Below, piece by piece: positions 6,993 to 23,879 of a stretch of 24,000 nt of DNA (position 1 is the first letter of the stretch; each line of letters begins with the position of its first letter). The DNA comes from Candidatus Desulfatibia vada (GTDB taxonomy: Bacteria; Desulfobacterota; Desulfobacteria; Desulfobacterales; UBA11574). The position numbers and the translations under genes were made by a program. The notes under the pieces were generated by a model. It was not told where the DNA came from and did not search any database. It saw nothing but the letters and a program-made list of their open reading frames with translations. The DNA lies in contig JACNIG010000211.1 in the NCBI GenBank assembly GCA_014383215.1, positions 9,181 to 33,180 of the forward strand, in the 5' to 3' direction.

Positions 6993-7040
6993 CTAGTGAG
7001 ACCTTGCAAAAAAGGGCGTTTTGCAAAGGTCTTACTAGTT
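6991..7040 (+). terminator. Stem-loop of about 20 bp (one bulge, one G-U) starting at the amrB-like stop codon
   Basis: AACTAGTGAGACCTTGCAAAA ... TTTTGCAAAGGTCTTACTAGTT paired by hand. There is no clear U-tract. Confidence 0.45.
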
Positions 7041-7043
7041 CAG

Positions 7044-7658: not shown

Positions 7659-7802
7659 ATGAAAAATGTTTTGTTGCTGTCATTATGTACCGGGATGTTT
7701 GTTTTTGGCATGATTGGAGTGGCAGGTGTTATGACGTACGCGGATACTTATGTTGCAGAAATTTATTTAAGTATCATTTTACTATTCGTTAGCGCGGCAT
7801 AG
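7659..7802 (+). CDS. Possible small ORF (47 aa) with a signal-peptide-like N-terminus
   Basis: Own translation: MKNVLLLSLCTGMFVFGMIGVAGVMTYADTYVAEIYLSIILLFVSAA*. It is below the ORF-track size cutoff, has no convincing RBS and has no support beyond hydrophobicity. Confidence 0.2.
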   Translation: MKNVLLLSLCTGMFVFGMIGVAGVMTYADTYVAEIYLSIILLFVSAA

Positions 7803-8332: not shown

Positions 8333-8344
8333 ATTTTGAGGCCT

Positions 8345-8569
8345 ATGAACGTAACTACTACAAAAGCTTTGGTACCAACTCAAAATTTCATTCCTTTGCA
8401 TGAAAGTGCCAAGAAAGTTGCGGTTTGCCTCGACCTTTATCCCCGGCGATATCGAAATCAAATTGTATTTGCAATGCGTGCAGCAGATGATTTAGATGGT
8501 AAATACGGGAATAACGGGAGAAAATTGGTAAACCCGAAACTCGCCGAATTTGTAGATATTTATATTTAA
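8345..8569 (+). CDS. Small hypothetical protein (74 aa)
   Basis: ORF starting 13 nt after the PilZ stop (ATG 8345; the track lists TTG 8336). No recognisable motif. Its position suggests co-transcription with the PilZ gene. Confidence 0.35.
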   Translation: MNVTTTKALVPTQNFIPLHESAKKVAVCLDLYPRRYRNQIVFAMRAADDLDGKYGNNGRKLVNPKLAEFVDIYI

Positions 8570-8594
8570 ATAAAATCGCTTCGCGATTTTATTT
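8568..8594. terminator. AT-rich palindrome AAATAAAATCGC-TTC-GCGATTTTATTT between convergent genes
   Basis: 11-12 bp stem paired by hand. A/T runs flank both sides, which is compatible with a bidirectional intrinsic terminator. It overlaps the stop codon of the response-regulator gene. Confidence 0.5.
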
Positions 8595-9080
8595 TAGCAA
8601 GATTTTTGCCAGAATGATTCCAAGGATCAGCCAGACGGGAACGGAAATAATTAGGGCCAGGGTCAGACCGCGGAAAATACCGAGTTGTTTAAAGAGAGTG
8701 TGCTTTTCCAGGGCCCGGCGGATAATTAGTTCCAGAGCCTCAAGATTGATCGGTTTGGGGATGAAATCGTAAGCCCCTTTTTTAACGGCGATAATTGACG
8801 ACTCAATGGTTCCGTAGCCGGTAATGATCAGCACTACGGCCCGGCTGTCCACGGCCTTGATAGCCTCTAAAAGCTCCATGCCGTCCATGTCCGGCAACTT
8901 CAAGTCCAGGATCGCAAGCTGAAAATCTCCCTGTTCAAACTGTGTCAGCCCCTCGCGGCCGCCATAGGCTGCCGTGGCCTGATAGCCCATTTTAACCAAA
9001 AATTCCACCAGCATGTTCGCCAACTGTTGGTCGTCATCAACCACTAAAATCCGTACAGTTTTATCAGTTTTCAGCACCAT
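8589..9080 (-). CDS. Single-domain response regulator (REC) with a C-terminal transmembrane tail
   Basis: The CheY-like residue set is intact: VVDDD, phospho-acceptor in AILDLKLPDMDG, IITGYG, and K in FIPKP. The last ~28 aa (GLTLALIISVPVWLILGIILAKILLK) are a hydrophobic helix. The RBS AAGGAGG precedes the ATG. Confidence 0.85.
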   Translation of the reverse strand: MVLKTDKTVRILVVDDDQQLANMLVEFLVKMGYQATAAYGGREGLTQFEQGDFQLAILDLKLPDMDGMELLEAIKAVDSRAVVLIITGYGTIESSIIAVKKGAYDFIPKPINLEALELIIRRALEKHTLFKQLGIFRGLTLALIISVPVWLILGIILAKILLK

Positions 9081-9273: not shown

Positions 9274-10989
9274 CTATATATATCCTTTTTGTCCTAACAA
9301 CAGCAGGACCTCCTGGGCGGCCTCATCGGGCGTCAGAGCGGTAGTATCGATTCGCAATTCAGGAGATTTCGGTATTTCATAAGGATCATCCACACCGGTA
9401 AAACCTTTGATAAGCCCGGCCCGGGCTTTGGCGTACATCCCCTTGCGGTCTCTTTTTTCGCAAACCTCTATTGGGGTTGAGACGTGAAGTTCGAAAAATC
9501 CGCCGTAGTTTTCAATGGTTTTCCGAATTTCCGCTCGGGTTTCATTGTAGGGCGCAATGGGAGCACAGATGGCAATGCCGCGGTTTTTGGTGATTTCACC
9601 GGCCACAAATCCGATACGGCGCACGTTGACATCCCGATGCTCTTTGGAGAAATTCAACAGGTTTGAAAGATGCCGCCGTACGATGTCACCGTCCAGCAGA
9701 GTGACCGGGCGGTCCCCTATCTCCAGAAAGCGCGCATATAGAACTTTGGCAATCGTCGACTTTCCGGCTCCTGAAAGGCCGGTCAAAAAAATAGTGAAGC
9801 CCTGTTGGCGCGGGGATGGATATGCTTTGCGAAGCTCCGCTATAACTTCAGGGAAAGTGGCCCACTCCGGTATCCGCCGTCCGGCCCTGATCCTGTCCCG
9901 GATATGGGAACTTGAAAAAGAAATCGTCTGGGTCCCTTCGGGAACCTGGTTCGCGGGACGGTACTCATCTTCAAACGGCAAATAAACCAGCTCTTGGAAA
10001 GGGACAACGGTCACGCCGATTTCTTGACTGTATTCTTCGGCAAGTTCACGGGCCGCATGGCTTTCATAAAAAGGCTTGCCGTTGGCATCAGATCCCGGGC
10101 TGGCGTGGTCGCGACCTACAATGAGATGGGTGCATCCGTAATTTTTTGCAATTATCATATGCAATAGTGCATCCCGGGGGCCGGCCAGACGCATGGAAAG
10201 CGGTAACAAATTCAGCACAAAAGAATCCGGCGGGTAGTGGCGGGTTACCGCACGATAGCATCTTACGCGCGTATAGTGGTCGAAATCGCCGGGTTTTGTC
10301 ATCCCCGTAATCGGAAGCAGCAGCAGATTCGTTTTGGCCTGCCGCATAGCCCTGATGGTCATTTCAAACTGCAGTCGCTGGATAGGGTTGCGGGTCTGAA
10401 ATCCTACGACCCTCTGCCATCCGAGTTTGTGATAGATGCTGCGGACCTCCCGCGGAGACATGCGCAGCTGCTTAAAGTCAAAGTGCAGTGGTAGACTCAA
10501 TACTTCCAGTTTGCCGCCGACATAATGGTTACCTTCGTTATTAAACAGATAATTAACTCCCTGGTGAGTCCGATCGGTAGTTCCGTAAACCCGGGAGGCT
10601 TCTTTCCGGTGATCCAGCGGCCAGATGTCTTCAATATGCATGATTCCCAGCAAAAACCCTTCAGGATCTCTTAAAGTGACCGACTGGCCGACATCAAGGG
10701 TCCTGGCCTGGATATCGGGGAGGCTGAGGCAAACCGGTAGAGGCCAGAGAATTCCACTTTGCAGCCGCATACGGTCCAGAACCGATTCATAATCAGAGCG
10801 GGTCATGAACCCGTCAAGCGGAGAAAAGGCTCCGGTTGCAAGCATCTCAAAATCACACAACTGACGATCGTTTAAAGTAATATCCGGCAGGTTCAGGGCA
10901 ATATCTTTCAGCAAAACGCTTCGTTCCTGATCCACCGGCAAATCCACCAGCGAACCGCCGTGGGGCTCAACCAATGACGCCTTGTTCAT
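9274..10989 (-). CDS. cysC: ATP-sulfurylase-like domain fused to adenylylsulfate (APS) kinase; the sulfurylase HxxH motif is degenerate
   Basis: The N-terminal ~390 aa carry sulfurylase motifs (GFQTRNP, LIVGRDHASPG). The C-terminal ~180 aa form an APS kinase (FLTGLSGAGKSTIA, LLDGDIVR, FSKEHRDVNVRR). I prefer the start at ATG 10989 (MNKASLVEPHGG), which has GGAGGAG 6 nt upstream. The track's longer ORF lacks an RBS. Confidence 0.85.
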   Translation of the reverse strand: MNKASLVEPHGGSLVDLPVDQERSVLLKDIALNLPDITLNDRQLCDFEMLATGAFSPLDGFMTRSDYESVLDRMRLQSGILWPLPVCLSLPDIQARTLDVGQSVTLRDPEGFLLGIMHIEDIWPLDHRKEASRVYGTTDRTHQGVNYLFNNEGNHYVGGKLEVLSLPLHFDFKQLRMSPREVRSIYHKLGWQRVVGFQTRNPIQRLQFEMTIRAMRQAKTNLLLLPITGMTKPGDFDHYTRVRCYRAVTRHYPPDSFVLNLLPLSMRLAGPRDALLHMIIAKNYGCTHLIVGRDHASPGSDANGKPFYESHAARELAEEYSQEIGVTVVPFQELVYLPFEDEYRPANQVPEGTQTISFSSSHIRDRIRAGRRIPEWATFPEVIAELRKAYPSPRQQGFTIFLTGLSGAGKSTIAKVLYARFLEIGDRPVTLLDGDIVRRHLSNLLNFSKEHRDVNVRRIGFVAGEITKNRGIAICAPIAPYNETRAEIRKTIENYGGFFELHVSTPIEVCEKRDRKGMYAKARAGLIKGFTGVDDPYEIPKSPELRIDTTALTPDEAAQEVLLLLGQKGYI

Positions 10990-11048
10990 GTTAAACTCCT
11001 CCAACAACCATTGTAAATAATAACGGTTCTTCTCTCGATTAGTTGATA

Positions 11049-11170
11049 CCAAGGGTTCCAGGATTCAAGGATTCAGCCGTCTTCGCTAAAGCTACGCCGT
11101 GCCAAGAGGGGTCGAGTGCTTTCTTTCAAACGATTTAATAAGTGCTTTGAGCATCCTCTCAACCTCTCGT
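11049..11170. repeat. Dispersed composite repeat (GGTTCCAGGATTCAAGG units, the TTCAGCCGTCTTCGC...GCTACGCCGTGCC motif, and GCTTTC..TCAAAC..GCATCCT.TCAAC)
   Basis: Sub-blocks recur at 16466-16630 and 21970-22006. Lies in the divergent intergenic region between the sat/cysC-like gene and the hydrolase gene. Confidence 0.5.
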
Positions 11171-11351
11171 ATCCCCTCTAAGAGTATCTTTACTTTGCAG
11201 CTATTATACCAGTATTATACCAGAATGAATACTATCAAAATACGATAACGGGGTAAACTTGACATTTGCCGCCTCCGGGTAGTACAATTCGTTGAATTTA
11301 TGATAACAAATAAAACGAATTAAACGCTTATTATTGGGAGAGAGGTGCGCA

Positions 11352-12035
11352 ATGACAGTAAAAATTACCTGGTACGGGCACGCCTGTTTTTTGATAGAAA
11401 CCGCAAAGGCCAAACTGCTGTTGGACCCTTTTATCAGCGGCAATCCCCTCTCTCCGGTTCAAGCCGATCAAGTTGCACCTGATTATATCCTGGTTTCACA
11501 CGGCCACGGCGATCATCTGGGGGACAGCGTTGAAATTGCCAAACGAACCGGAGCAACCGTTGTTTCAAATTATGAAATTTACAACTGGCTGGTGGGGCAG
11601 GGGATTGATAACGCTCATCCGATGCATATCGGCGGCGGTTTTGATTTCCCATGGGGGCGGGTAAAACTGACCATGGCCCAGCATGGATCAGCCCTGCCGG
11701 ATGGTACTTACGGCGGAAATCCCTGCGGGTTTTTGCTCTATCTTGAAACAAAAAAGATCTATCACGCCTGTGATACCGGACTGTTTTACGACATGAAGCT
11801 AATCGGCGAAGAGGGCATCGACCTGGCAATTTTACCCATCGGCGACAATTTTACCATGGGACCCGACGATGCCCTGCGGGCGGTCAAACTGATCGAACCG
11901 GCGCAGGTGGTGCCCATGCACTACAATACGTTTGATATGATCAAGCAGGATGCGCCGGCCTGGGCCTTAAGAGTGGAGCAGGAAACTTCCGCTCAAGTGA
12001 CTGTTATGAATCCGGGCGACCAGCTTACACTTTGA
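11352..12035 (+). CDS. UPF0173-type metal-dependent hydrolase (metallo-beta-lactamase fold)
   Basis: MTVKITWYGHACFLIE...LLLDPF...ILVSHGHGDHLGD...VPMHYNTF is the typical UPF0173/YtkL-like pattern with the HxHxDH motif. ATG 11352 is preferred over the track start 11334. Confidence 0.8.
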   Translation: MTVKITWYGHACFLIETAKAKLLLDPFISGNPLSPVQADQVAPDYILVSHGHGDHLGDSVEIAKRTGATVVSNYEIYNWLVGQGIDNAHPMHIGGGFDFPWGRVKLTMAQHGSALPDGTYGGNPCGFLLYLETKKIYHACDTGLFYDMKLIGEEGIDLAILPIGDNFTMGPDDALRAVKLIEPAQVVPMHYNTFDMIKQDAPAWALRVEQETSAQVTVMNPGDQLTL

Positions 12036-12120
12036 TAGCGTCGTGAAAAGTCCCATCTACTGCGTTATAGTATTTTTTTGTCTCTCGCAGAGCCCGCAGA
12101 GGGCACAGATATTTGGGTTT

Positions 12121-12174
12121 TTTTCCTTACCGCTGAGCCCCGCTATATCTAGCGGGACTCAGCGGTAAGGAAAA
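12121..12174. terminator. 25-bp stem (one mismatch), 4-nt loop hairpin between convergent genes; probable bidirectional terminator
   Basis: TTTTCCTTACCGCTGAGCCCCGCTA-TATC-TAGCGGGACTCAGCGGTAAGGAAAA paired base by base. T/A runs flank both sides. It is nested inside outer imperfect arms at 12081-12109 and 12190-12217. Confidence 0.7.
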
Positions 12175-12231
12175 ATGATAATTATCTTTCTCTGTGTACT
12201 CTGCGAGCTCTGTGAGAGCTTAAAATGCCCT

Positions 12232-15200
12232 TTACTCCACGTATTTTTCTATGTGACGTTTTATTTTTCTGCGTTTGGACGCGGGAGTGATCGACCAGGG
12301 CCCCTCGCCGTTATCAACGCTTTCGTACAATATTTCAAGACCCTCTTTGACAAGGTCTTCATTACCCTCATTCTCTTTTTTCAAGCGATCTAACTCTAAT
12401 AAAAAAATTACTTCGGCCCTGTGTCTCACGGGCAGTGACAGCAATCCTCTGATACTTTTATTTTCAGAACGTTTAAGGCTGGCAATTTGGGTGCTGTAAA
12501 CCTTTTCGAAATGGTTTAAAGACGAGGTATAGTCCCTGGTTTTAAAATTTTTCATGGCACCTTCAAGTGCGGTTTTACGATCAACTATTTCTTCAGGGGC
12601 CGCGGGTTTAGCGGTAGCTACTACTGCCGCTGTCCGGGCATTTCGGGCGGCCGCAAATTCCTGCTCAGGAGCCTGCAATTTTGCAAGAAGCTTCTGACTT
12701 TCATCAATTTTAAGACGGTAGATAAACTCAACATCAATGGCCGCCGGCAGAGCCTGGGCTTTTGTTGCGGCGCGCTGGTAAAACATCAAGGCTGATTCCA
12801 GATTTTGAACGGATGCGGGTGCAGTTGCGCTGAAGCGGTCGCCGGCATCGATCTCTCTGAAAAAAGCGATGAGCCCCAGGGTATTCTGAATGCGTTCTCC
12901 GGCCAGATGCCGGCTTAAGAACTGCTGGTTGTCATAAAGGAGTTTTTCAGCCGTCTGCCACTGGGAAGGGTTGAGGTCGGTGATGATGCGGTCATAGGTT
13001 TGGCCGGCGGCAAGTTCTTTTTGCTGTGTTTGCAGGCGCGCAAGGTGTTCCTGGCTCCCATTGATTTTAAGGCGGTGGATAAACTCAACGTCAATAGCAG
13101 TCGGCAGGGCCTGGGCTTTTGTTGCGGCGCGCTGATAAAACATCAAGGCTGATTCAATGTTATTAATGGATGCGGGTGTGGTTGTGCTGAAGCGATCGCC
13201 TTCATCGATTTCTCTGAAATAATCGATGAGCCCGGCGGTATTCTGTTTGCGTTCTTCATCCAAGTGCTGACTTAAGAACTGCTGGTTGCCATAAAGGAGT
13301 TTTTCAGCCGTCTGCCAATCAGACGGGTTTAAAGCCGCCACGATACGGTCGTAGGTTTGGTCGGCGGCACGCTGCTTCTGCTCGGTTTGCAGGCGCGCAA
13401 TCTGCTTTTGACTTTCATCGATTTTAAGGCGGTGGATAAACTCAACGTCAATAGCAGTCGGCAGGGCCTGGGCTTTTGTTGCGGCGCGCTGATAAAACAT
13501 CAAGGCTGATTCAATGTTATTAATGGATGCGGGTGTGGTTGTGCTGAAGCGATCGCCTTCATCGATTTCTCTGAAATAATCGATGAGCCCGGCGGTATTC
13601 TGTTTGCGTTCTTCATCCAAGTGCTGACTTAAGAACTGCTGGTTGCCATAAAGGAGTTTTTCAGCCGTCTGCCAATCAGACGGGTTTAAAGCCGCCACGA
13701 TACGGTCGTAGGTTTGGTCGGCGGCACGCTGCTTCTGCTCGGTTTGCAGGCGCGCAATCTGCTTTTGACTTTCATCGATTTTAAGGCGGTGGATAAACTC
13801 AACGTCAATAGCAGTCGGCAGGGCCTGGGCTTTTGTTGCGGCGCTCTGATAAGAGCTCAAGGCTGATTCACTGCTTTTGATCGATACGGGCGTTACCTGG
13901 ATGAGACGGTCGCCGGCATCAATGTCTTTGAAAAAAGCAACGAGCAGGGCAGTATTCTGTTGGCGCTCCTGATCGAGATTTTCACTTAAGAACGGCTGGT
14001 TGTCATAAAGGAGCTTTTCAGCCGTCTGCCATTCGGACGGGTTTAAAGCCGCTACGATACGGTCGTAGGTTTGGCCGGCGGCAAGCTGCTTCTGCTCGGT
14101 TTGCAGGCGCGCAATCTGCTCTTTACCGGCATCGATTTTAAGGCGGGGGATAAATTCAACATCAAGGCCGGTGGGCAGGCTTTTAGCTTTTTTTTCAGCG
14201 CTCTGATAAAACATCAAGGCCGATTCGATGCTTTTAATGGATGCGGGTGCGGCCTGGCCGAGACGATCGCCGGCATCGATGTCTTTAAAAAAGGCCGCAA
14301 GCAGTGCAGTCTTCTGTCGGCGCTCCTGATCGAGATTTTCACTTAAGAACTGCTGGTTGTCATAAAGGAGCTTTTCAGCCGTCTGCCATTCGGACGGGTT
14401 TAAAGCCGCCACGATAAGGCCGTAGGTTTGACCGGCGGCAAGCTGCTTTTGCTCGGTTTGCAGGCGCGCAATCTGCTCTTTGCCGGCATTGATTTTAAGA
14501 CGGGGGATAAATTCAACGTCAAGGCCGGTAGGCAGGCTTTTAGCTTTTTGCGCGGCGCTCTGATAGGAGCTTAGGGCTGATTCGCTGCTTTTGATCGATA
14601 TGGGCGTGGCCTGGATGAGCTGGTCGCCGGCATCGATGTCTTTGAAAAAAGCCACGAGCAGTGCAGTATTCTGTTGGCGCTCCTGATCAAGATTTTCACT
14701 TAAGAACGGCTGGTTGTCATAAAGGAGCTTTTCAGCCGTCTGCCATTCGGACGGGTTTAAAGCCGCTACGATACGGTCGTAGGTTTCCCAGGCCAATATT
14801 TCCTGCTGTATTTCTTTTGCAGTGATTTCATCTGTCTGGATATCGGAAGCATCAGATTCGATCAAGCTGTCGCCATGTTTATAAACGGCCTTGACATAAT
14901 ATTCATCTACCTGCCCGCTGGTTCGGAGCACTTTGGCATGCGTCTCTTTAACCTGCCCAAAAAGCTCTTCATTTATAAACAGCTTGTAGCCTACCGGTTC
15001 TCGGGCTGTTGCCGGCCGTTTCCAACCCACGATATTTTTATCGTTTTCACGTTGCATATAAAGGCCGTCCGGGGCGGTAGGCAGAAAGCTGATTTTTATT
15101 TGATAAACCCGATTATCCAAAGAGTAGATGACGGCGGCGTACTTGTTGATATTCGACTCTAAGATTTCGTAATTATGATCATTTACCAGAGGGATGCGGT

Positions 15201-15582
15201 CAATACCAAGATAAAAAGAGATACTGCTGTCGGTTTTGGGGAGCCATAATTCTAAATTATCGTTGCTGATATTGCTTATGGTCCCGAAGGTCTCCTGATA
15301 GTTGATAAGGCCGGCCTTGATCTTTTCCTGAATATTGCGGTCAAAGACCTGTTTTAAAATGATCGTGTTTCTGATCATTTTCTTTTCGGAGGCGTCGCTT
15401 TCGGCAAGTTTTTTGAATAAAATTTTGAGAGGGTAATCCTGATAAGGGCTCTTTTGGGCCTCGAATTCCTTTTTGGTTATAAAATCAACTGCAAAGGCAG
15501 AAGTGCTGTGCAGGCATGTTAAAAACATCCCCAAAAGAATAATTAGCGATATTTTAGCAAAATTTCCTGTTTGATTTTTCAT
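12232..15582 (-). CDS. Secreted 1116-aa repeat protein: signal peptide, N-terminal domain with an FN3-like segment, six 119-aa helical repeats, C-terminal domain
   Basis: The signal peptide is MKNQTGNFAKISLIILLGMFLTCLHSTSAFA. An FN3-like stretch follows (IVGWKRPATAREPVGYKLFINEE...YYVKAVYKHGDSL). It then has six repeats beginning (Q/E)TYDRIVAALNPSEWQTAEKLLYDNQ. The ATG lies 9 nt after the stop of the upstream ABC ATPase gene. Confidence 0.85.
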   Translation of the reverse strand: MKNQTGNFAKISLIILLGMFLTCLHSTSAFAVDFITKKEFEAQKSPYQDYPLKILFKKLAESDASEKKMIRNTIILKQVFDRNIQEKIKAGLINYQETFGTISNISNDNLELWLPKTDSSISFYLGIDRIPLVNDHNYEILESNINKYAAVIYSLDNRVYQIKISFLPTAPDGLYMQRENDKNIVGWKRPATAREPVGYKLFINEELFGQVKETHAKVLRTSGQVDEYYVKAVYKHGDSLIESDASDIQTDEITAKEIQQEILAWETYDRIVAALNPSEWQTAEKLLYDNQPFLSENLDQERQQNTALLVAFFKDIDAGDQLIQATPISIKSSESALSSYQSAAQKAKSLPTGLDVEFIPRLKINAGKEQIARLQTEQKQLAAGQTYGLIVAALNPSEWQTAEKLLYDNQQFLSENLDQERRQKTALLAAFFKDIDAGDRLGQAAPASIKSIESALMFYQSAEKKAKSLPTGLDVEFIPRLKIDAGKEQIARLQTEQKQLAAGQTYDRIVAALNPSEWQTAEKLLYDNQPFLSENLDQERQQNTALLVAFFKDIDAGDRLIQVTPVSIKSSESALSSYQSAATKAQALPTAIDVEFIHRLKIDESQKQIARLQTEQKQRAADQTYDRIVAALNPSDWQTAEKLLYGNQQFLSQHLDEERKQNTAGLIDYFREIDEGDRFSTTTPASINNIESALMFYQRAATKAQALPTAIDVEFIHRLKIDESQKQIARLQTEQKQRAADQTYDRIVAALNPSDWQTAEKLLYGNQQFLSQHLDEERKQNTAGLIDYFREIDEGDRFSTTTPASINNIESALMFYQRAATKAQALPTAIDVEFIHRLKINGSQEHLARLQTQQKELAAGQTYDRIITDLNPSQWQTAEKLLYDNQQFLSRHLAGERIQNTLGLIAFFREIDAGDRFSATAPASVQNLESALMFYQRAATKAQALPAAIDVEFIYRLKIDESQKLLAKLQAPEQEFAAARNARTAAVVATAKPAAPEEIVDRKTALEGAMKNFKTRDYTSSLNHFEKVYSTQIASLKRSENKSIRGLLSLPVRHRAEVIFLLELDRLKKENEGNEDLVKEGLEILYESVDNGEGPWSITPASKRRKIKRHIEKYVE
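12646..14787 (-). repeat. Six in-frame tandem repeats of 357 bp inside the 1116-aa CDS
   Basis: The period was measured from recurring GGCGGTGGAT at 13071, 13428 and 13785. As far as I can read, 13063-13487 equals 13420-13844 exactly (782 bp perfectly periodic). The outer units are more diverged. Confidence 0.9.
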
Positions 15583-15591
15583 TTTTTCCCT

Positions 15592-16410
15592 TTACACTCC
15601 AGGTTCCTTATTAAGAAAGCTGGTTGCTGACATTTCTTTTTGAACTTGCTGTATCTGCCGGCCAAAAAAATCTTGCGGATCATTATTTTCAAATATTTCT
15701 ATGTGCCGAGCGGTGATATTGGGAGGGCTGTTTTTTTGCCGGTTTTCGGTAACAACCAGCAGCGTGTTTAAATGCTGAAAGTTCTTATCGTCCTTAATCT
15801 TTTTACCCATCCAATGGTCGATGAAAAAGATGGTGGCAAGGTTTTTTCGATAAGCTCTTTGCAGGGTCATCCAAAAATAGTGACGTCTTTCGGCATCCAG
15901 ATTCGAGAGCGGTTCATCTAAAAACCAAACGGGCTTTTTTGCATCCAAGACTATATCCATTAATACTTTCTGCTGCTGGCCGCCTGAAAGCAGATCCGGA
16001 TATTCATGGGCAGAGAAAGCGGCGGCCTTTTGCCGGTCGGATCCATTTAAAACCATATAATTGTCACGTGTGGAAACAGGGAGGAAAAAGGCTTTTTGAG
16101 GGAAGATGCAAAAACTCTTTTCCCTGATTTCGGCAGCCCTGATGTAATTAAAACTCTTGGCATTATATGTTTCGTCGTTAAATTTGATTGTTCCCTTATC
16201 AGGGCCGGATGCTCCTCCTATGCTGCCAATTGTTAATGCCAGCATGTTGAGCAGGGTTGTTTTACCGGAGCCGTTATCTCCGTACAGGTAGTAGGCGCCC
16301 TGCTTAAATTCAAGGGTGTCGCCGCTTTCCAGAGTAAAAGTAATGCTGAATGAGTCGTTCTGGGTCAATATTAAAGGAAATGTAACCTCAAAACGGTTGG
16401 CCTTCGACAT
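15592..16410 (-). CDS. ABC-transporter-type ATP-binding protein
   Basis: Walker A GDNGSGKTT, Q-loop FPQKAFF, signature LSGGQQQK, Walker B VWFLDEP plus D-loop SNLD, and H-loop FFIDHW. N- and C-terminal extensions are present relative to minimal NBDs. Confidence 0.85.
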   Translation of the reverse strand: MSKANRFEVTFPLILTQNDSFSITFTLESGDTLEFKQGAYYLYGDNGSGKTTLLNMLALTIGSIGGASGPDKGTIKFNDETYNAKSFNYIRAAEIREKSFCIFPQKAFFLPVSTRDNYMVLNGSDRQKAAAFSAHEYPDLLSGGQQQKVLMDIVLDAKKPVWFLDEPLSNLDAERRHYFWMTLQRAYRKNLATIFFIDHWMGKKIKDDKNFQHLNTLLVVTENRQKNSPPNITARHIEIFENNDPQDFFGRQIQQVQKEMSATSFLNKEPGV

Positions 16411-16465
16411 AATCTGAACCTTGATAGTTTCGTAACAAGTTAAAGGTTAAGGCTCTTCTCCCATT

Positions 16466-16630
16466 TAGTTGGAGAAGAGGGTCAAGGGTTCAAGGATTCA
16501 AGGGGTCAAGTGGTTGCTTTCAAACAATTTTATCATTGTTTTGTGCATCCTTTCAACTTCTGCTGTTGAGGCATGGATATTTTAAGTATTTCACTCGAAC
16601 CCTGGAATCCTTGGCCCCTTGAATCCTAAT
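16466..16630. repeat. Composite repeat or hairpin in the permease-ATPase spacer (GGGTCAAGGGTTCAAGGATTCAAGGGG ... inverted CCCTGGAATCCTTGGCCCCTTGAATCC)
   Basis: The flanking arms are inverted complements of each other. The centre (GCTTTCAAACAATTTTATCATTGTTTTGTGCATCCTTTCAACTTCT) is homologous to 11119-11168. TTAGTTGGAGAAGAGGGTC also occurs at 7385-7405. Confidence 0.5.
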
Positions 16631-16635
16631 TTCAT

Positions 16636-18090
16636 TTATCTTCCTTTGTGCAATGTATGCAGGTTCAGGGTGTTGCCGGTAAACGGGCTGAAACACCACT
16701 TGTTAATGGGGTGGAAAGCTGCGGCCGCAGAAAAAAGAGTTATTGCCAGCGGCAGCGCAATGTGAGCTGAGGCCCCCAAGTCACCGAAAATTGAATACAG
16801 AAGATAGGCCGCAAGAATACCCCCTTTGACAAACAGCATCAGTAAGACCGGCAGCAGCCAAAAGATGAATAACAGCTCCCTGATTCTGTTTTTGAACATA
16901 AACAGGAAAGCAATTTCGGTTTTCAAATGGATAAATGCAAAAAGCGATATCATAAAAGGAAAAGCAATCCCCATGGATAAATCCGTGAGATAGAAATTTA
17001 TATGGTTGGAACGGATATCATCATTGATATTCTTTACCTTATCTTTCAAGATATGCGACTTTTCATAAGAATAAAGGTAGTGTCCCTGAGAATGCAGCTG
17101 ATCGATGTAATCCATAAAGTCGTTTTTTATATCGATATTTTGATACATCAGCCAGTTCCAGCGAGGTTCTAATACCTGCGGAACATAGAAGGGGACGTAT
17201 CTGGGATAGGCATCGATGTCTTGATACATTACGTTATCCTGATATATTTGGGGGATAGCCAAATATGCTTTGTCGGTTTTGATGGCCCCATCCTTTTCAT
17301 AACTGACTGATTCCGCCAAATCGATAATATCAGTAGTGTTGTCGTATTTGATGTTTGTCAATATGTGTAAAAAATTCAAAGGAATAATACATTCCACTCT
17401 GCTCAGGTATGGGTTCGGCATATGATTTGGGTTCAGGGGGATTCTTTTAATATTGTCGATAATAGATTTTTTAATAGAATTATAAACATCAATCCTTTTA
17501 TCCCAGACGTTTTCCCTTATCATATCGGCAAGGTCGATTAAATCAAATCTGAGTGTGTTGTGTCTGTCCGCAATAACAGCCTCATTGAGTGCGGTGCCGT
17601 TGTGATCAATATAATTGTTTATGACATTTATGGTATAATCGTCGGTGCGCTCTTTTAAAAAAAAGTCATCGACAAAACTTTGGATATGATAAACGCTGTA
17701 CAACAAATTGATGGCGTCTTTGTTGCTTAAGCTGTCCGGGTGACTTGTTGCGGATGGAGTAAAAAAGTGAATAAACAGATTATTTTGATATATAAAGGCC
17801 TGCTTGACAATTTCCGCGCCGAGATGCCGTAGTTTCCGGTAGTGCCCGGCAAGAAATCGTCCAAAGCTATTTTGGGAGCGCATACGCACAAAAAAGACTT
17901 TGAAAGCCTTTTGGTTTACGATTTCATTTTTCAACATTTCTGCTTTGTGGAATTTTTTTACGTAGCTGAATGTATTAAAGCCCATCATTACCAAGAAGGC
18001 TATCACGAGGCAGACGAATCGCTTTCTTGTGGACTTTCTGAAGAGCATCTTAAGGCACACAACCAGCAGTTTGTAAAAGTCATTTGTCAT
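16636..18090 (-). CDS. Membrane protein with FtsX/MacB-like (type VII ABC permease) topology
   Basis: It has one N-terminal TM (FVCLVIAFLVMMGFNTF) followed by a hydrophilic Asn/Tyr/Asp-rich domain of about 300 aa. The last ~110 aa contain 3-4 TM helices. It sits immediately upstream of an ABC ATPase gene. The family assignment rests on topology only, not on motifs. Confidence 0.65.
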   Translation of the reverse strand: MTNDFYKLLVVCLKMLFRKSTRKRFVCLVIAFLVMMGFNTFSYVKKFHKAEMLKNEIVNQKAFKVFFVRMRSQNSFGRFLAGHYRKLRHLGAEIVKQAFIYQNNLFIHFFTPSATSHPDSLSNKDAINLLYSVYHIQSFVDDFFLKERTDDYTINVINNYIDHNGTALNEAVIADRHNTLRFDLIDLADMIRENVWDKRIDVYNSIKKSIIDNIKRIPLNPNHMPNPYLSRVECIIPLNFLHILTNIKYDNTTDIIDLAESVSYEKDGAIKTDKAYLAIPQIYQDNVMYQDIDAYPRYVPFYVPQVLEPRWNWLMYQNIDIKNDFMDYIDQLHSQGHYLYSYEKSHILKDKVKNINDDIRSNHINFYLTDLSMGIAFPFMISLFAFIHLKTEIAFLFMFKNRIRELLFIFWLLPVLLMLFVKGGILAAYLLYSIFGDLGASAHIALPLAITLFSAAAAFHPINKWCFSPFTGNTLNLHTLHKGR

Positions 18091-18094
18091 TAGT

Positions 18095-18270
18095 TCGGGG
18101 TTCAGGATTCGGGGTTCAAGATTCAGGGTTCAGGGTTCAGGGTTCAGGATTCTGATTCCGGGTAACTGGTTGCGTGATAACTGATAACTGGTTACTGATA
18201 ATTTTTCGCCTTTCACTGATAACTGATCACTGACCTCTGGTCTCTGATCTCTGACCCCTGATCACTGCCT
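18095..18270. repeat. Heptanucleotide-periodic tract filling the spacer between cluster genes B and C
   Basis: Three consecutive 7-nt-period blocks: GGTTCAG/GATTCGG, then CTGATAA/CTGGTTA, then CTCTGAT/CCCTGAT. GGGTTCA is repeated three times exactly at 18125-18145. Confidence 0.8.
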
Positions 18271-18271
18271 A

Positions 18272-19150
18272 CTAGTTATCTCCGTATGTCCAGAGAGTTA
18301 TTATCATGTTTCTGCTCATACCGATTTCATATGCATATATTTTTAATTCTCTTGAATATTTCTTGCCGAATCTGGAAACGATGATTACCTGGTCGGCGAA
18401 ATCGGTTCCATGAAGAGATTTCAGATTATCAAGCACTCTCTGGTAATATTCCAGGGTGTCGTTTTCCAGGGAGAGCCCCATTTTGTCGGTATCCAGCTTT
18501 TCGATATCCTGATAAATTTTGAAATAGTAGCTGTTATAGTTGCCGGCTTCATAGTAATAGAAATAATGGGAGAAATCCGGATTTTTCAGCAAGCGCTTAA
18601 CGCTCCCATAGTATTTTCGCAGATCGGCATCGAAACTGTTAAAATCGTAAAATAAAAATCGTTTGGAGCCGCTGCGGATAATGCCTTCTTCATCGCTCAA
18701 GGTTACTGCGGCGATATGATCGATGTTCAGTACCGGATAATATTCGCTGCTGTCAAGCTTGACCCGGACCGGTCCGTTCAGGATGCGATAGCGGATATCC
18801 TGCCGGCTGCGGTCATAGGCAAATTCGATCTGAAATTTTCCCTTGTAACGGTTTTTAATAACCAGCTGCAGATCATAATTGCGCAGAGATGACGGAGGAT
18901 CGGCAACCAGTTCCCAATAACCTAACTTCCCAAGAGAGATCGACTCCTGCTTGGCATTTTCGATCAGGGCTAAAAAATTATAACCGGCAGTAGTGCCGGT
19001 TAAGCCGACCTTAAAAACGCGGTTGTTATCGTTGCTCAGTTGTATGTTACGGCCTTTAAAGAGTGTATCCGCGTGGATCTCACCGGCTAATGCCCAGCCG
19101 GCTAACAGGAAGATACAGAACCATTTGACGGGGTGTAATTTTGTTTTCAT
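18272..19150 (-). CDS. Secreted hypothetical protein (about 292 aa)
   Basis: Signal peptide MKTKLHPVKWFCIFLLAGWALAGEIHA. No recognisable domain; the C-terminal half is Tyr/Phe-rich. The track's GTG start (19168) lies inside the heptamer tract, so ATG 19150 is preferred. Confidence 0.7.
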   Translation of the reverse strand: MKTKLHPVKWFCIFLLAGWALAGEIHADTLFKGRNIQLSNDNNRVFKVGLTGTTAGYNFLALIENAKQESISLGKLGYWELVADPPSSLRNYDLQLVIKNRYKGKFQIEFAYDRSRQDIRYRILNGPVRVKLDSSEYYPVLNIDHIAAVTLSDEEGIIRSGSKRFLFYDFNSFDADLRKYYGSVKRLLKNPDFSHYFYYYEAGNYNSYYFKIYQDIEKLDTDKMGLSLENDTLEYYQRVLDNLKSLHGTDFADQVIIVSRFGKKYSRELKIYAYEIGMSRNMIITLWTYGDN

Positions 19151-19160
19151 AGGATGTATG

Positions 19161-19318
19161 CTGGTCACTGGTTACTGGATACTGGTCACTGGATACTGGT
19201 TACTGGATACTGGATACTGGTCACTGATCACTGACAACTGGATTTTAAAAGTAAGTTATCCTTATTTTATCCAGTATCCAGCATCAAGTATCCAGGATCA
19301 CTTCTCACTGATCACGGA
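19161..19318. repeat. Twelve tandem heptamers CTGG(T/A)(T/C)A (19161-19244) plus an inverted heptamer tract (about 19268-19318)
   Basis: Parsed by hand as CTGGTCA CTGGTTA CTGGATA CTGGTCA CTGGATA CTGGTTA CTGGATA CTGGATA CTGGTCA CTGATCA CTGACAA CTGGATT. The downstream CCAGTATCCAGCATCAAGTATCCAGGATCAC is the approximate reverse complement. Confidence 0.8.
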
Positions 19319-21639
19319 CCGGGGGCATAAAGCTCTCCAACCTTTAGGTACATAAATTTACGTTGCACGGCCTGATTAAAGGAATTGAGGTGGAACCCTC
19401 GCTTGGAAATATATTCCGCCAGGGGACCTTTATCCTCGCCCAGGGCTTTGTTCCAGAGAATCTCTTTCCCGGGTTCTTTGCTGGTTAAGGCTTTATAAAA
19501 TGCCGCATCCGCTGATTGGAAGGTTCTTTTTTCGATAAGAGGTTTAATATGATCGTATAGTTTTCTGCATCTTTCGATATCGTCAACACTCACCAGTGAA
19601 TTTATAATAATCAATTTTTTAAGATCGGACAGAGAAACATCATCCTGAGTTCTGATCGCTCTCAAAAAAGACTCTACCGGTTTGGCCGGAATTGCTATGC
19701 GTTGATCCCAAACAATGGGGTCCTCAACATTCTTTACATATTTAACGACGTGGTTCAGCACCTGAATTTTGCGATCGCTCCATTTTTGCATTTCCGTCAA
19801 CAGTTTTTGATCTGAAAAATAGAGGATAATGTCTTTGGGCATCTCTCCAGCGCCCTGGGTTTTAAAAACATGATCGACGTAAGCCTGGATTCCGTCCAAA
19901 AGTCGTTTGTGCTGTTTGGTGAAATCCTCTTGCCGTTCTTGCTTTGATTTCAGCTTTTCAGCTTTGAATTCGAATTTTCTAAAGGTGACATCTTGGCCTT
20001 CAGGATTACCGGCTTCAAACCGGGCGATCAGGTCTTTTAAATTACGGTAGGCATCGTCCGGAGTGTCGTTCAAATTGGCGGGGGTCAGGATACCGTGGTC
20101 GGTCGGATAGATAAAGTAGACGCTCAGATTAAGATCCAGCGCTTTTTGGGTAACATAGGATAAGGTTTCTTCGGACAGGTCATTGGGCCCGGCATCCGTT
20201 ATGACAAAAAGCAGTTTTGCATGCAAAGGAAGGATCTGCCGTTCTTTTTGTAAGGATTCGATTTCATGAAGGACTTTGACCATGGCCCGCATCAGAGGCT
20301 CGGCGTAATCACGGTCTCCAGAGCCCTTGACAAAGGTGAGGTTCTCGGGCCTTTTGACCCGGATAAAATTGGGTTCGGCTTTAATATCTTTGTAGCTTTC
20401 GGGTGAATCCCAGTATGCAAAGACGCGGTTCATTCTTAATCCAATACCTTTTTGCCTCATATCCTGAACGCTTTTATTAAAAGACTTCACATAGTCGGCA
20501 AAAGGACGCATACTTTCGGATACGTCCAATAAAAAGAAGGTATTTAAGTTTCTTTTGATGGAACTGGAGAGCAGCCGCATGAGCCTGGGCGTAAATGCGC
20601 CCGGAATGAACACCTTGGCATAAGAATCGTCTTTGGTGTACTGCGGGTGGGTTAACTGGGGAAACCCGAAATGAGTATAAAATTTATGCAGGCTCTCCTG
20701 ATCGAGTTTTTCCACGATGTCCCGAAAGAGCCTTTCTTTTAAATAAACATGCTCTACGTAAAATTTGTTGATTTCACCAGCTTCCAAAGACTCGTCTTTA
20801 CCCTCCGGGTCATTGAAAAATGGTACCGGCTGCAAGGGGTGGTAATAGAGCCTGGATCTCCACAGGGTGATATACTTTTTTTCGACCCAGCCGATGATTC
20901 CGATATCCTCTCGATTACTCCTGTAGTCGAATTCGTTAAAATCCTGGGCCAGCAGGTAATAGCCGTTTTGATAATCGAGTACTTTGTAAAAATCATAATC
21001 CACAAGGCTTTCCGGAGGAGTTGCCGAGTCTTTTTTATTATCTTGCCAGCTGTTCCAAATTGTAGGGAATTCATTGGCTTCGCCCGGCAGGCTTAGGAAG
21101 CCGTATACAGGAATGAAAGCTCTGTTTTTATCCAGCAGGGCATTGTACCAGAGAAATCCTTTCTCGAAATCAGACACATTAAGCGTAAATATCTTTTTAT
21201 CCCTTTGCCTTACTATTTTAAGCTCCTGTTTATCCCAATCGATTTCAACAACGTAAAAAACTTCCTGGAATTGGATTTTATCCTGTGGATAAAGGCTTTC
21301 CAGACCGCCATAAGGGAAGAAAGCTTTGGCGTGGGAGATGTAGAATATACCCTCATTGGGATCGGCGCTAAAAGCGTACCCTGCACCGTGTTTTTTTTCA
21401 ACCGCGCTGCGGGCCGAGGCCCATAGATTCATGTCAAGTTCGTGATAAATACGCTTGAGCGTGTTCATGAAGCCGTCGGGTTTGAATTGCCCTTCCCAAT
21501 CATGATCAATTGAACTGGGACATTTAATGTTTACCCGGCGGTCAGCATTCAAATCGGGCGGAATGGCGCTTGCCGGACTATGGGCTAACAAAAATGCCCC
21601 GGTAAACAGGAAAATAATCATTTTCTTAAAGCAGGTCAT
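19312..21639 (-). CDS. Secreted 775-aa protein with a von Willebrand factor A (vWA) domain
   Basis: The signal peptide is MTCFKKMIIFLFTGAFLLAHSPASA. The MIDAS motif DxSxS is present in TFFLLDVSESM, and LLFVITDAGPND occurs about 125 aa later. An SH3-like stretch (YKVLDYQNGYYLL...IGWVEKKYI) lies in the N-terminal half. A strong RBS, GGAGGTG, precedes the ATG. Confidence 0.8.
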   Translation of the reverse strand: MTCFKKMIIFLFTGAFLLAHSPASAIPPDLNADRRVNIKCPSSIDHDWEGQFKPDGFMNTLKRIYHELDMNLWASARSAVEKKHGAGYAFSADPNEGIFYISHAKAFFPYGGLESLYPQDKIQFQEVFYVVEIDWDKQELKIVRQRDKKIFTLNVSDFEKGFLWYNALLDKNRAFIPVYGFLSLPGEANEFPTIWNSWQDNKKDSATPPESLVDYDFYKVLDYQNGYYLLAQDFNEFDYRSNREDIGIIGWVEKKYITLWRSRLYYHPLQPVPFFNDPEGKDESLEAGEINKFYVEHVYLKERLFRDIVEKLDQESLHKFYTHFGFPQLTHPQYTKDDSYAKVFIPGAFTPRLMRLLSSSIKRNLNTFFLLDVSESMRPFADYVKSFNKSVQDMRQKGIGLRMNRVFAYWDSPESYKDIKAEPNFIRVKRPENLTFVKGSGDRDYAEPLMRAMVKVLHEIESLQKERQILPLHAKLLFVITDAGPNDLSEETLSYVTQKALDLNLSVYFIYPTDHGILTPANLNDTPDDAYRNLKDLIARFEAGNPEGQDVTFRKFEFKAEKLKSKQERQEDFTKQHKRLLDGIQAYVDHVFKTQGAGEMPKDIILYFSDQKLLTEMQKWSDRKIQVLNHVVKYVKNVEDPIVWDQRIAIPAKPVESFLRAIRTQDDVSLSDLKKLIIINSLVSVDDIERCRKLYDHIKPLIEKRTFQSADAAFYKALTSKEPGKEILWNKALGEDKGPLAEYISKRGFHLNSFNQAVQRKFMYLKVGELYAPGP

Positions 21640-21969
21640 TTTTCACCTCCGCTACCTTATTTAGCTCAATGATTCCGACGACGGGATTTCGCTTTGCTCA
21701 ACCCCGGTGCCGGTATCTTAGACTTTCAAATCTGCTGCACCCGCAATTTAGGGTAAACTTAAAACCGGATGTGGCGGTCTGCCAAATGCAAGAATTGCTT
21801 ACCTATTCGGGCTCAATTGAGGTATAGTGAATTAAAGCTTTGGAGTCAATCAAAAACGTGATCGGCATTTGGTCCCCGGGGAAGGCAAGTTGCGGGGATT
21901 TGGGTGGTTGATAACCGCTGCAGGAATTGGTATAGGTGGTTTAAAACGTTCGCATGATAGCTGTCAGGG

Positions 21970-22006
21970 TTCAGCCGTCTTCGCGTAGCTACGCCGTGCC
22001 GAGGGG
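21970..22006. repeat. Second copy of the TTCAGCCGTCTTCGC..GCTACGCCGTGCC.GAGGGG motif
   Basis: Matches 11072-11111 apart from a small indel and substitutions. GGGTTCAG/GGGTTCTGGGTTACTGA heptamer-type sequence flanks it. Confidence 0.5.
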
Positions 22007-22033
22007 TTCTGGGTTACTGATCGAGGGTTGGAA

Positions 22034-22819
22034 ATGAAAGATAAGCACGGCCATCCACAAATAGACGGCAGCAGGAAGCTTTTGGAAACAGACACGTTCA
22101 GGTTTGACTGCCATCCTCAAACCCCATGTTTTACACGATGCTGTCACGATGCTGACATGTATCTGTATCCTTATGATATTATTCGCCTGAAGAACTGCCT
22201 CAGCATTTCTTCTGAGAGGTTTCTGGAACAGTATACCTTAACCGCTTTCAGAGACAATCCTTATTTCCCTAATCTTATGCTGAAGATGTCGCCTGGTGAG
22301 AGAAAATCATGTTCCTTTCTTGCCCAGGGAGGATGTACCGTATATGAGGATCGACCGTTCTCATGCCGGGCCTATCCGCTGGAACGGGCGGTGGCGCGCA
22401 GCAGTGCCGGCAAGAAACGGGCGGTCCATTTTTTTCTTGCCTGTCACGAGCACTGTTTGGGGCATAAAGAACCCCGCGAATGGTCCGTCAATGAGTGGAT
22501 CAAGGACCAACAGATACAAATATTCAATGATATGAATGACCTGTGGGTCGATGTTGATGCGCTGTTTAGGGGAAACCCGTGGGGCCGTCAGGGGGTCGAC
22601 GGGCCGGCTTTTAAGATGGCCTTTATGGCTTGTTTTAATATTGACAAATTCAAGATGTTTGTTTTTGAAAGTACTTTTTTGTCCCGGTTCGATGTATCGC
22701 CGGAAAGAATTGACAAGCTAACTGCATCGGATGTAGAACTCATGAAATTTGGGTTTGACTGGATAAAATTATTCCTCACGGGTGCCGGTCCGCTGACATT
22801 AAAAATTCGTAAAAAGTAA
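22034..22819 (+). CDS. YkgJ/UPF0153-type cysteine-cluster protein (putative Fe-S or Zn protein)
   Basis: FDCHPQTPCFTRCCHD (CxxxxxCxxCC-type N-terminal cluster) and CSFLAQGGCTVYEDRPFSCRAYP are typical of the CxxCxxCC family. ATG 22034 is preferred over TTG 22028. Confidence 0.7.
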   Translation: MKDKHGHPQIDGSRKLLETDTFRFDCHPQTPCFTRCCHDADMYLYPYDIIRLKNCLSISSERFLEQYTLTAFRDNPYFPNLMLKMSPGERKSCSFLAQGGCTVYEDRPFSCRAYPLERAVARSSAGKKRAVHFFLACHEHCLGHKEPREWSVNEWIKDQQIQIFNDMNDLWVDVDALFRGNPWGRQGVDGPAFKMAFMACFNIDKFKMFVFESTFLSRFDVSPERIDKLTASDVELMKFGFDWIKLFLTGAGPLTLKIRKK

Positions 22820-22837: not shown

Positions 22838-22864
22838 CGTTTTCAGTTTTAGGTTTTAGGCAAC

Positions 22865-23584: not shown

Positions 23585-23760
23585 CAGGTTCAACGGATGA
23601 ACATCCAAAGACGGATGAACATCGACATCGAACGCCCAACATCGAATGATGAATAAAAAAACCGAATGAAATTAAATTGTAGAGCGGAGCGACATCATTA
23701 TTCGATGTTCAACGTTGGACGTTCGATGTTCAGTCTGTTCGATATTCACGTTCATCTTTC
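23585..23760. repeat. Low-complexity long palindrome (GATGAACATC / CGAACG units)
   Basis: GAACATCGACATCGAACGCCCAACATCGAATGATG (23617-23651) pairs imperfectly with CATCATTATTCGATGTTCAACGTTGGACGTTCGATGTTC (23693-23731). It lies between convergent genes. Confidence 0.55.
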
Positions 23761-23879
23761 AAAATAATTCCGTACGGCATAAATGTAACCTGTGAACGCC
23801 TGCGAAAGGTAACCCGACTCGGCTGAGCTCATCGCAGGCTGAACGGTGAACTCTGAACCCCTGAACGGTTCTTATGTCT

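Follow-up and report, generated by a model that had tools for sequence, protein, structure and literature searches.

A conserved five-gene operon of uncultured Desulfobacterales encoding an ABC ATPase, a four-helix membrane protein and exported vWA and repeat proteins

The five genes and their conservation

Five neighbouring minus-strand genes, here labelled A to E, occupy positions 12232-21639 of a 24,000-nt stretch of the Candidatus Desulfatibia vada metagenome-assembled genome (MAG; GCA_014383215.1, contig JACNIG010000211.1, 9,181-33,180 of the forward strand). We call this whole stretch the window and give positions in its numbering, except where the handle of another locus precedes them. 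In order of transcription the genes encode an exported von Willebrand factor A (vWA) protein, an exported orphan protein, a membrane protein, an ATP-binding cassette (ABC) ATPase and an exported repeat protein. All five open reading frames (ORFs) lie where the original prediction, which was made from the sequence of the window, had placed a run of co-directional genes. By exact look-up their products are MBC8432212-16, annotated only as "VWA domain-containing", "ATP-binding cassette domain-containing" or hypothetical, and when A to E are scanned against Pfam, NCBIfam and PADLOC, D alone gives a match. Primed labels (A'-D') denote distant paralogous versions of the genes.

Gene A (19312-21639, minus strand) encodes a 775-aa, Sec-exported protein in which hydropathy bears out the signal peptide previously proposed: a basic N-terminus is followed by a hydrophobic segment and an AxA-type site. 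The mature part comprises a beta-rich N-terminal domain (~aa 30-345), a vWA domain (~aa 365-558; 19966-20547, minus strand) and an alpha/beta C-terminal domain (~aa 560-775). In the AlphaFold2 (AF2) model (pLDDT 79) strands and helices alternate at aa 365-558, and a Foldseek search of the model against the Protein Data Bank (PDB) gives 98 matches at E<=1e-3, all of them vWA domains (best E 3.5e-6), including those of integrin beta-I, ITIH1, CMG2/ANTXR, TRAP and VWF-A1. The metal-ion-dependent adhesion site (MIDAS) has the sequence DVSES at aa 372-376 (20512-20526), with an ITDAG strand at aa 479-484. Among its ligands, D372, S376 and D482 do not vary over 51 relatives, and conservation of S374 and T481 is at least 90%. 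Fold matches and conserved ligands together uphold the earlier call of a vWA domain with an intact DxSxS MIDAS. Pfam VWA finds nothing in the window's own A at E<=1, the same model (PF00092) scores below threshold in 15 of the 51 relatives (best E 4.4e-4), and a PDB sequence-profile search with the A alignment gives nothing significant. The likeness to the vWA domains of integrin beta-I, ITIH and the anthrax receptor, which covers both the fold and the DxSxS...T...D MIDAS, is limited to these ~200 aa, and the N- and C-terminal domains have no detected relatives.

Orthologs of A are 58-93% identical to it. One ortholog in the main clade (P0130) carries a C-terminal SPOR domain, which is peptidoglycan-binding and places A in the periplasm. 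Another (P0117, L033:223-3222) is annotated with a 225-aa N-terminal extension that bears a HEIGH (HExxH) motif and precedes the membrane segment; this extension may be a start-codon artefact.

The product of gene B (18272-19150, minus strand) is an exported protein of 292 aa from an orphan family in which the motif GxTGTTxGxN is invariant. The longest ORF begins with a GTG at 19168, and the ATG at 19150, taken as the start in the original prediction, is the one that matches the ortholog alignment. The predicted signal peptide is recognisable as a basic, hydrophobic, AxA-type N-terminus. The protein is also, as first described, without a recognisable domain, there being no match in Pfam, NCBIfam or PADLOC and no significant match in a PDB profile search. 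Its syntenic orthologs are 53-98% identical.

Gene E (12232-15582, minus strand) starts 9 nt after the stop codon of D and encodes a 1116-aa protein that consists of an N-terminal domain, six 119-aa repeats, an Ala/Pro linker and a C-terminal domain. Both this close spacing and the secretion of E had been predicted, and the latter agrees with a basic, hydrophobic, AxA-type N-terminal signal. The conserved N-terminal domain, E_N (~aa 33-265), includes an FN3-like part, the FN3 match in the PDB profile search being weak, and a second conserved domain forms the C-terminus (~aa 985-1116). The repeats (aa 267-980; 12643-14784, minus strand) are helical and form six exact units, the number originally counted, each with an FFxxIDxGDR loop whose G53 and D54 are 93-95% conserved over 74 repeats and are among the best-conserved positions. 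In the PDB profile search they give a weak TPR-like match to a Rap protein (E 0.007).

In the DNA, the repeat array has a period of 357 nt, 5.9 copies and 87% matches, and the repeats share 68-83% identity with the reference copy. In protein sequence copies 4 and 5 hardly differ, a likeness that suggests recent duplication. Across species the number of repeats ranges from ~2 to 14, with one assembly-gapped locus scoring 1. Within one 90%-identity cluster, E measures either 997 or 1116 aa, a difference of exactly one 119-aa unit (5 vs 6). E is the fastest-evolving of the five proteins, and a search with E_N for other architectures recovered only 14 orthologs, mostly partial. No LytM, CHAP, NlpC, amidase or other hydrolase domain was found in A, B or E with Pfam and NCBIfam, and no canonical lipobox can be read in any of the three. 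As far as these searches reach, B, E and the ends of A are orphan sequences.

With C as query we retrieved 105 protein clusters, and with A 79. All of these relatives come from uncultured Desulfobacterales or Thermodesulfobacteriota, and they contain Pfam domains only in occasional fusions. We obtained 18 genome loci, in addition to metagenome loci, by looking up gene contexts and scanning 185,579 species genomes. By tblastn, every related locus of sufficient length has the genes in the order A-B-C-D-E. These loci cover about 17 uncultured Desulfobacterales species as well as metagenome contigs. All five genes are present in 17 loci, and the hosts include a Desulfonema sp. MAG and the Olavius algarvensis Delta 4 endosymbiont. 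Adjacent genes in these relatives touch or overlap one another, with gaps of -23, 15, 1 and 2 nt in L001, and D follows C in all loci. Identity to the window's proteins across species is 60-67% for A, ~55-65% for D and B, 42-60% for C and 34-45% for E, and E is again the fastest against the closest relatives: in L009 it is 78% identical and A 93%. Because the gene order recurs across species with unlike flanking genes, chance adjacency is ruled out, and we regard it as almost certain that A-B-C-D-E is a conserved operon, as the original prediction of a single co-localised unit had it.

The sole recurrent neighbour of the operon is a PAS-sigma54 activator gene directly 3' of E, which is found in four loci of one subclade, on the same strand and 200-360 nt downstream of E (L001:16742-18925; also L015, L016 and L019). 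A search for sigma-54 promoters upstream of A, in the window and 14 other loci, gave no convincing site. Viral contigs and plasmids were also searched and contained no relatives of the operon.

The membrane protein and the ATPase

Gene C (16636-18090, minus strand) encodes a 484-aa membrane protein whose hydropathy profile has one N-terminal and three C-terminal hydrophobic segments. Its AF2 model (pLDDT 85, pTM 0.78, ectodomain pLDDT mostly 80-95) starts with an amphipathic helix (aa 3-16) and a long first transmembrane (TM) helix, TM1 (aa 22-58), which leads into an alpha/beta ectodomain (aa 59-341; 17068-17916). A very long helix (aa 342-400) that forms TM2 leads back, followed by TM3 (aa 403-436), a 5-residue outside loop and TM4 (aa 442-466). 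The four TM helices and ~280-aa ectodomain of the model agree with the 1+3 topology that had been read from the sequence. Basic residues (K/R) are found at the N-terminus, in the TM2-TM3 loop and in the C-terminal tail, and this pattern, hydropathy and the AF2 model concur in giving four TM helices with both termini cytoplasmic, as the type VII architecture requires. According to a review of MacB (PMC5985334), type VII systems are characterised by 4 TM helices, an ectodomain between TM1 and TM2, an amphipathic N-terminal helix and a coupling helix. They further have a Porter subdomain, in which two beta-alpha-beta motifs flank an insertion and connect directly with the stalk helices, an ABC ATPase that is fused to the permease or encoded beside it, and ATP-driven, long-range motion of the periplasmic domains in a (TMD-NBD)2 dimer. 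At the place where type VII permeases carry the major coupling helix, C has a cytoplasmic segment, aa 390-405 (HLKTEIAFLFMFKNRIRE), in which K390, E392, M398 and N401 are invariant. This segment, which follows TM2 and has the family consensus HLKTEIAFLxMFKN, is the most conserved stretch of the C family.

When the model of C is compared with 350,542 PDB chains by Foldseek, nine of the ten top matches are type VII permeases. YtrF ranks first (9o9x_C, E 0.065, probability 0.96) and Spr0695 second, and LolC, LolE, HrtB, FtsX and MacB are also among the fold neighbours; after the type VII permeases come RND and Patched proteins, with Porter-like domains that resemble the MacB Porter domain. Since type VII permeases are a tiny fraction of the PDB, this enrichment is meaningful despite the weak E-values.

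Several results nevertheless weigh against a kinship of C with these permeases. All its Foldseek matches have E>1e-3, with TM-scores of 0.39-0.42 and root-mean-square deviations of 9-14 A, and AF2 was trained on MacB-type structures. Pfam FtsX (PF02687) and MacB_PCD (PF12704) do not match the window's C at E<=1, nor any of 71 members of the C family at E<=10, nor any of 10 distant members at E<=1. A PDB profile search with the C alignment came back empty. When 1.84 billion representatives were searched exhaustively with an HMMER profile of the C alignment, there were 32 matches and no FtsX protein, all 32 belonging to the C family save one false positive, an insect allergen. In hhalign, the C family, with and without its distant members, aligns to an alignment of E. 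coli LolC, LolE, MacB and FtsX with a probability of 0.09%; the only local alignment, which is not significant, falls on the TM2-to-TM3 region of LolC. The FtsX fold claimed for C is thus no more than putative: topology and nearest folds favour it, while the structural matches are weak (best E 0.065, TM-score ~0.4) and the sequence tests negative. C resembles a type VII permease in its architecture and is not assignable to the FtsX family by sequence.

Gene D (15592-16410, minus strand) is more readily placed. Its 272-aa product has all the catalytic motifs of an ABC ATPase, namely a Walker A motif (GDNGSGKTT), a Q-loop, the signature LSGGQ, a combined Walker B/D-loop (FLDEPLSNLD) and an H-loop. 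It scores 55 bits with Pfam ABC_tran and shares 24-26% identity, with E about 1e-10, with FtsE, LolD and the nucleotide-binding domain (NBD) of MacB from E. coli. The intact motifs and the Pfam match agree with the complete NBD that had been predicted, and to judge from them D is a divergent yet complete ABC ATPase. Members of the D cluster are labelled "ABC-type lipoprotein export system ATPase subunit" (a LolD-type COG) in IMG, and the NCBIfam models, to be counted with the points against a type VII assignment, show no special affinity of D for LolD, FtsE or any other subfamily. On balance, we consider that C and D are probably type VII-like in function.

It is very improbable, in our judgement, that C and D are an ordinary small-molecule ABC transporter amid unrelated exported proteins. 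Such a transporter would accord with the generic NBD of D, which obtains its best NCBIfam scores from both importer and exporter ATPases. However, the five-gene synteny in ~17 species, and its persistence in clusters merely 23-44% identical (see below), argues against it. So does the combination of 4 TM helices with a 280-aa ectodomain, which is unlike known solute-translocating ABC folds, and library scans of the window found no substrate-binding protein.

Among described type VII systems, FtsEX-EnvC (and likewise FtsEX with PcsB, CwlO or RipC) also consists of a separate ABC ATPase and a 4-TM permease with a TM1-TM2 ectodomain. A periplasmic, largely helical client is encoded nearby, and no substrate crosses the membrane, as we propose here; FtsX is, moreover, among the fold neighbours of C. 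Unlike FtsX, C lacks FtsX sequence or profile similarity and has an ectodomain of ~280 aa rather than ~100 aa, and it is accompanied by a vWA protein, a 292-aa orphan and a length-variable repeat protein, in which there is no LytM, CHAP, NlpC or amidase domain. With MacAB-TolC the system shares 4 TM helices, a long TM1/TM2 stalk, an alpha/beta periplasmic domain and possibly a Porter-plus-insertion layout (the best whole-chain TM-score of C, 0.41, is to MacB), but the NBD is unfused, neither a MacA-type adaptor nor a TolC-type duct is encoded, and Pfam MacB_PCD and FtsX do not match. The closest structural matches of C belong to YtrEF of B. subtilis (YtrF, top) and Spr0694-0695 of S. pneumoniae (Spr0695, second). 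FtsEX-EnvC and YbbAP-TesA (the latter from E. coli) are described as type VII systems with periplasmic partner proteins, and YbbAP-TesA in particular shows that a type VII engine can pair with such a partner. The present system differs from YtrEF, Spr0694-0695 and YbbAP-TesA in that the E-values are just 0.065-0.86, the partner set is unrelated and there is no lipid hydrolase.

Non-coding signals and neighbouring genes

The 5' region of the operon (21640-22027, minus strand) is divergent from a gene for a CxxCxxCC protein (22028-22819, plus strand). A Shine-Dalgarno sequence, GGAGGTG, lies just upstream of A, 5 nt ahead of its ATG, and accounts for the strong ribosome-binding site of the original prediction. 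At the other end, between E and a convergent gene for a metallo-beta-lactamase (MBL)-fold protein (11334-12035, plus strand), a bidirectional intrinsic terminator spans 12120-12175. The stem proposed here earlier is confirmed, with 26-nt arms (12120-12145 and 12150-12175) that are 96% complementary, a 4-nt loop, and a T run before and an A run after the hairpin.

Three of the intergenic spacers had been described as repeat-filled, and all three contain 7-nt tandem arrays. The A-B spacer (19151-19311) has CTGGTTA/CTGGATA arrays plus an inverted copy. The B-C spacer (18091-18271) has GTTCAGG, TGATAAC and CTGATCT arrays and is hypervariable among close relatives, its arrays differing in length and sequence among all four of them. 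The C-D spacer (16411-16635) holds an insertion of ~215 nt that occurs only in this genome. It is missing from the loci of relatives that are 91-98% identical, in which the stop of C is ~10 nt from the start of D (L008:6451-6520, L009:11382-11450 and L010:13534-13600). Within this insertion are inverted heptamer arrays (16482-16512 and 16592-16622, 84% complementary) and a sigma-70-like site with an extended -10 element (16556->16527), directed at D. One possibility is that the insertion is a small mobile hairpin element and separates the transcription of D and E from that of A-C.

Heptamer arrays (GTTCAGG, CTGGTTA, TGATAAC, CTGATCT and others) are common between the genes of this genome, and further 7-nt arrays occur in the window at 2105-2134, 7653-7668, 22846-22860, 23701-23731 and 23838-23867. 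We take them to resemble the heptameric short tandemly repeated repetitive (STRR) sequences of filamentous cyanobacteria. An Rfam and tRNA scan of the window gave no matches.

Elsewhere in the window, an aldehyde:ferredoxin oxidoreductase is split into overlapping plus-strand ORFs, AFOR_N (3982-4650, 222 aa) and AFOR_C (4629-5930, 433 aa); a frameshift, a pseudogene or an error in the assembly of the MAG may account for the split. The window also contains a full-length DUF6178 protein gene (2026-3915, plus strand; 552 bits), a fused ATP-sulfurylase/APS-kinase gene (9274-11052, minus strand) and a weakly matching PilZ protein beside a stand-alone response regulator (7844-9080). A low-GC stretch of ~770 nt (6993-7762) has no ORF of at least 80 aa and no Rfam match.

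Proposed mechanism and alternative readings

The reading that we prefer, and which could prove wrong as readily as right, is that the operon encodes a type VII-like (MacB/FtsEX-like) ABC mechanotransmission machine together with its periplasmic clients. On the strength of synteny, A, B and E may form a complex on which C and D act. In this mechanism D would dimerise on ATP in the cytoplasm, presumably within a C2D2 assembly, and its closure would push the conserved helix of C at aa 390-405. The long TM1 and TM2 helices would relay this motion to the 280-aa ectodomain of C, which would act on the Sec-exported A/B/E complex, with no solute crossing the membrane. Overall, ATP would thereby control how a protein scaffold bound to the envelope is assembled, activated or released.

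Within this scaffold E_N would dock onto the A/B/C core. It is the likely docking piece because it is retained in all variants while the rest of the protein is swapped. The length-variable repeats and the C-terminal domain of E would serve as an output or recognition arm, to which FGS and PEGA modules in other clusters (see below) would be exchangeable equivalents. The MIDAS metal site of A would most likely clamp an acidic residue of a partner, the best candidate being the IDxGD loop of each E repeat, and such a pairing would make E a multivalent ligand for A. A role in the scaffolding or remodelling of the envelope fits the housekeeping-like flanks of the operon and the high conservation of A.

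A different use of the same components, in export or surface display, appears improbable to us. Here C2D2, like MacB or the extractor LolCDE, would expel A and/or E from the periplasm or the inner membrane toward the cell surface, where a vWA domain and long repeats would act as adhesins or matrix proteins in aggregates or symbiosis. Both vWA domains and long tandem repeats are characteristic of adhesins in bacteria, Sec signals are present on A, B and E alike, and the hosts include aggregate-forming or symbiotic Desulfobacterales, namely the Desulfonema sp. MAG and Olavius algarvensis Delta 4. Furthermore, MacB exports periplasmic peptide toxins (PMC5985334). Against this, no membrane-fusion adaptor, outer-membrane factor or LolA-like carrier is found in or near any locus. 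The lack of a canonical lipobox in A, B and E also argues against export, and the fusion of A to SPOR implies residence in the periplasm.

Further insight comes from distant clusters, which retain the order A'-B'-C'-D' at merely 23-44% identity. They include an extra gene of ~270-310 aa, and their last protein shares E_N but carries another module in place of the repeats. This module is an FGE-sulfatase (FGS, C-type-lectin-fold) domain in L005, L037 and L039, and TPR plus PEGA in L038. Among the neighbours of these clusters are FGE-sulfatase domains fused to caspase and PEGA or to a Ser/Thr kinase, as well as HNH-TIR, LRR-TIR, AAA/ABC-like ATPase and nSTAND-WD40 proteins. One A' protein (P0179, L032:120-3305) is itself a fusion, with an N-terminal cytoplasmic TIR domain, a TM segment and PEGA before the A' part, and adjoins a TIR-iSTAND gene. 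Taken together, the SPOR and PEGA fusions would place the system next to peptidoglycan. Another A', in L035, has no vWA domain altogether; this weighs against the mechanism set out above, in that MIDAS binding cannot be essential to its core.

The islands of effector-type genes lie at L005:742-9812, L007:2570-9849, L037:1-3800 and L038:300-2540. Their genes include one for an nSTAND1-WD40 protein and a second, shorter A paralog (L005:4279-6207). No TM segment was detected in the LRR-TIR protein beside the distant clusters, and several of the variant clusters share one metagenome, Ga0272440.

These associations raise the question of whether the operon is an envelope surveillance or conflict module, that is, a periplasm-facing sensor or neutraliser of invaders such as phage, toxins or foreign cells. 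The E arm or the vWA domain of A would bind a foreign ligand, and the ABC engine would reset the complex or signal, with suicide or immune effectors wired to the module in some lineages. We hold this to be possible but rather unlikely. The FGS or TPR-plus-PEGA modules at the E position are in its favour, as are the caspase-PEGA-FGS, kinase-FGS, HNH-TIR, LRR-TIR and nSTAND-WD40 genes that flank the distant clusters and the TIR-TM-PEGA-A' fusion beside a TIR-iSTAND gene. The conflict systems described for multicellular bacteria draw on this vocabulary of caspase, TIR, PEGA, FGS and STAND domains (PMC7159879). E also evolves ~3x faster than A, as their identities to L009 illustrate, and its repeat number is polymorphic between strains. 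In contrast, library scans of the window's own clade show neither effector domains nor neighbours of the FGS, TIR, caspase, MoxR or STAND kind, and its flanks are housekeeping genes that differ between genomes. The conservation of A, at 60-67% identity across species, is unusually high for a conflict protein. No PADLOC-DB 2.0 model matches A, B, C or E, D has only generic ABC/AAA matches there, and the searches of viruses and plasmids found no copies. The systems described in PMC7159879 are MoxR-vWA systems; an ABC or FtsX component is never mentioned, and no ABC-linked vWA system is described.

The comparison with MoxR-vWA systems (Bat, and the VMAP and iSTAND ternary systems; PMC7159879) has two sides in other respects as well. 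A vWA/MIDAS protein is the signature component in both cases. As in iSTAND systems, distant members of the A family have TM, PEGA and TIR parts and lie beside iSTAND, FGS and caspase genes. On the other hand, the operon has an ABC ATPase and a membrane permease instead of a MoxR AAA+ NTPase. There is no DUF58, VMAP or iSTAND protein in the window and no MoxR-type set in main-clade loci, iSTAND occurring only beside the L032 A' fusion. In addition, A has a beta-rich N-terminal domain in place of the CoxE-type 4-helix N-domain.

The absence of MoxR, DUF58, a membrane-fusion protein and an outer-membrane factor from the window, noted originally, holds in Pfam and NCBIfam scans. Membership of Bat/MoxR, MacAB-TolC, LolCDE and FtsEX-hydrolase systems is rejected, their defining components being absent. 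No characterised system in Pfam, NCBIfam, PADLOC or the literature searched aligns with the operon gene for gene, as had been predicted, and a literature search for vWA proteins with FtsX, ABC or type VII components found nothing relevant. None of the three outcomes named in the original prediction as contradicting it was observed. What the comparisons leave is an ABC system of type VII-like character whose partners are novel and for the most part orphan proteins.

A broader possibility, which we regard as speculative and unlikely, would unite the window's operon with its distant paralogs. The A-B-C-D core would then be an unrecognised family of ABC-powered, periplasm-facing vWA machines that forms the envelope arm of the immune and conflict systems of social bacteria. 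An envelope ligand would be recognised by an exchangeable E-arm (TPR-like, FGE-sulfatase/C-type-lectin or TPR-PEGA) and clamped, in an integrin-like manner, by the vWA/MIDAS protein. The type VII-like engine would either restore the complex to its starting state or relay the event through the membrane, and certain lineages would pass the signal straight to TIR, caspase or STAND effectors. The TIR-TM-PEGA-A' fusion would represent a design in the style of a Toll-like receptor, and of all members of the family the window's operon, which lacks effectors, would be the most widespread.

All carriers of the operon are uncultured Desulfobacterales, so any test needs heterologous reconstitution. Four orphan protein families, represented by the ends of A, by B, by C and by E_N, would be added to the map. 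The few partner logics described for type VII systems include an efflux duct, lipoprotein extraction, hydrolase activation, haem or peptide detoxification, and a lipid hydrolase. If our reading is true, an engine coupled to a MIDAS vWA protein and a length-variable repeat protein would be a fifth or sixth such logic and would widen the scope of envelope mechanotransmission. In view of its distant variants, the family may in addition supply a membrane-proximal part so far missing from the conflict systems described for multicellular bacteria.

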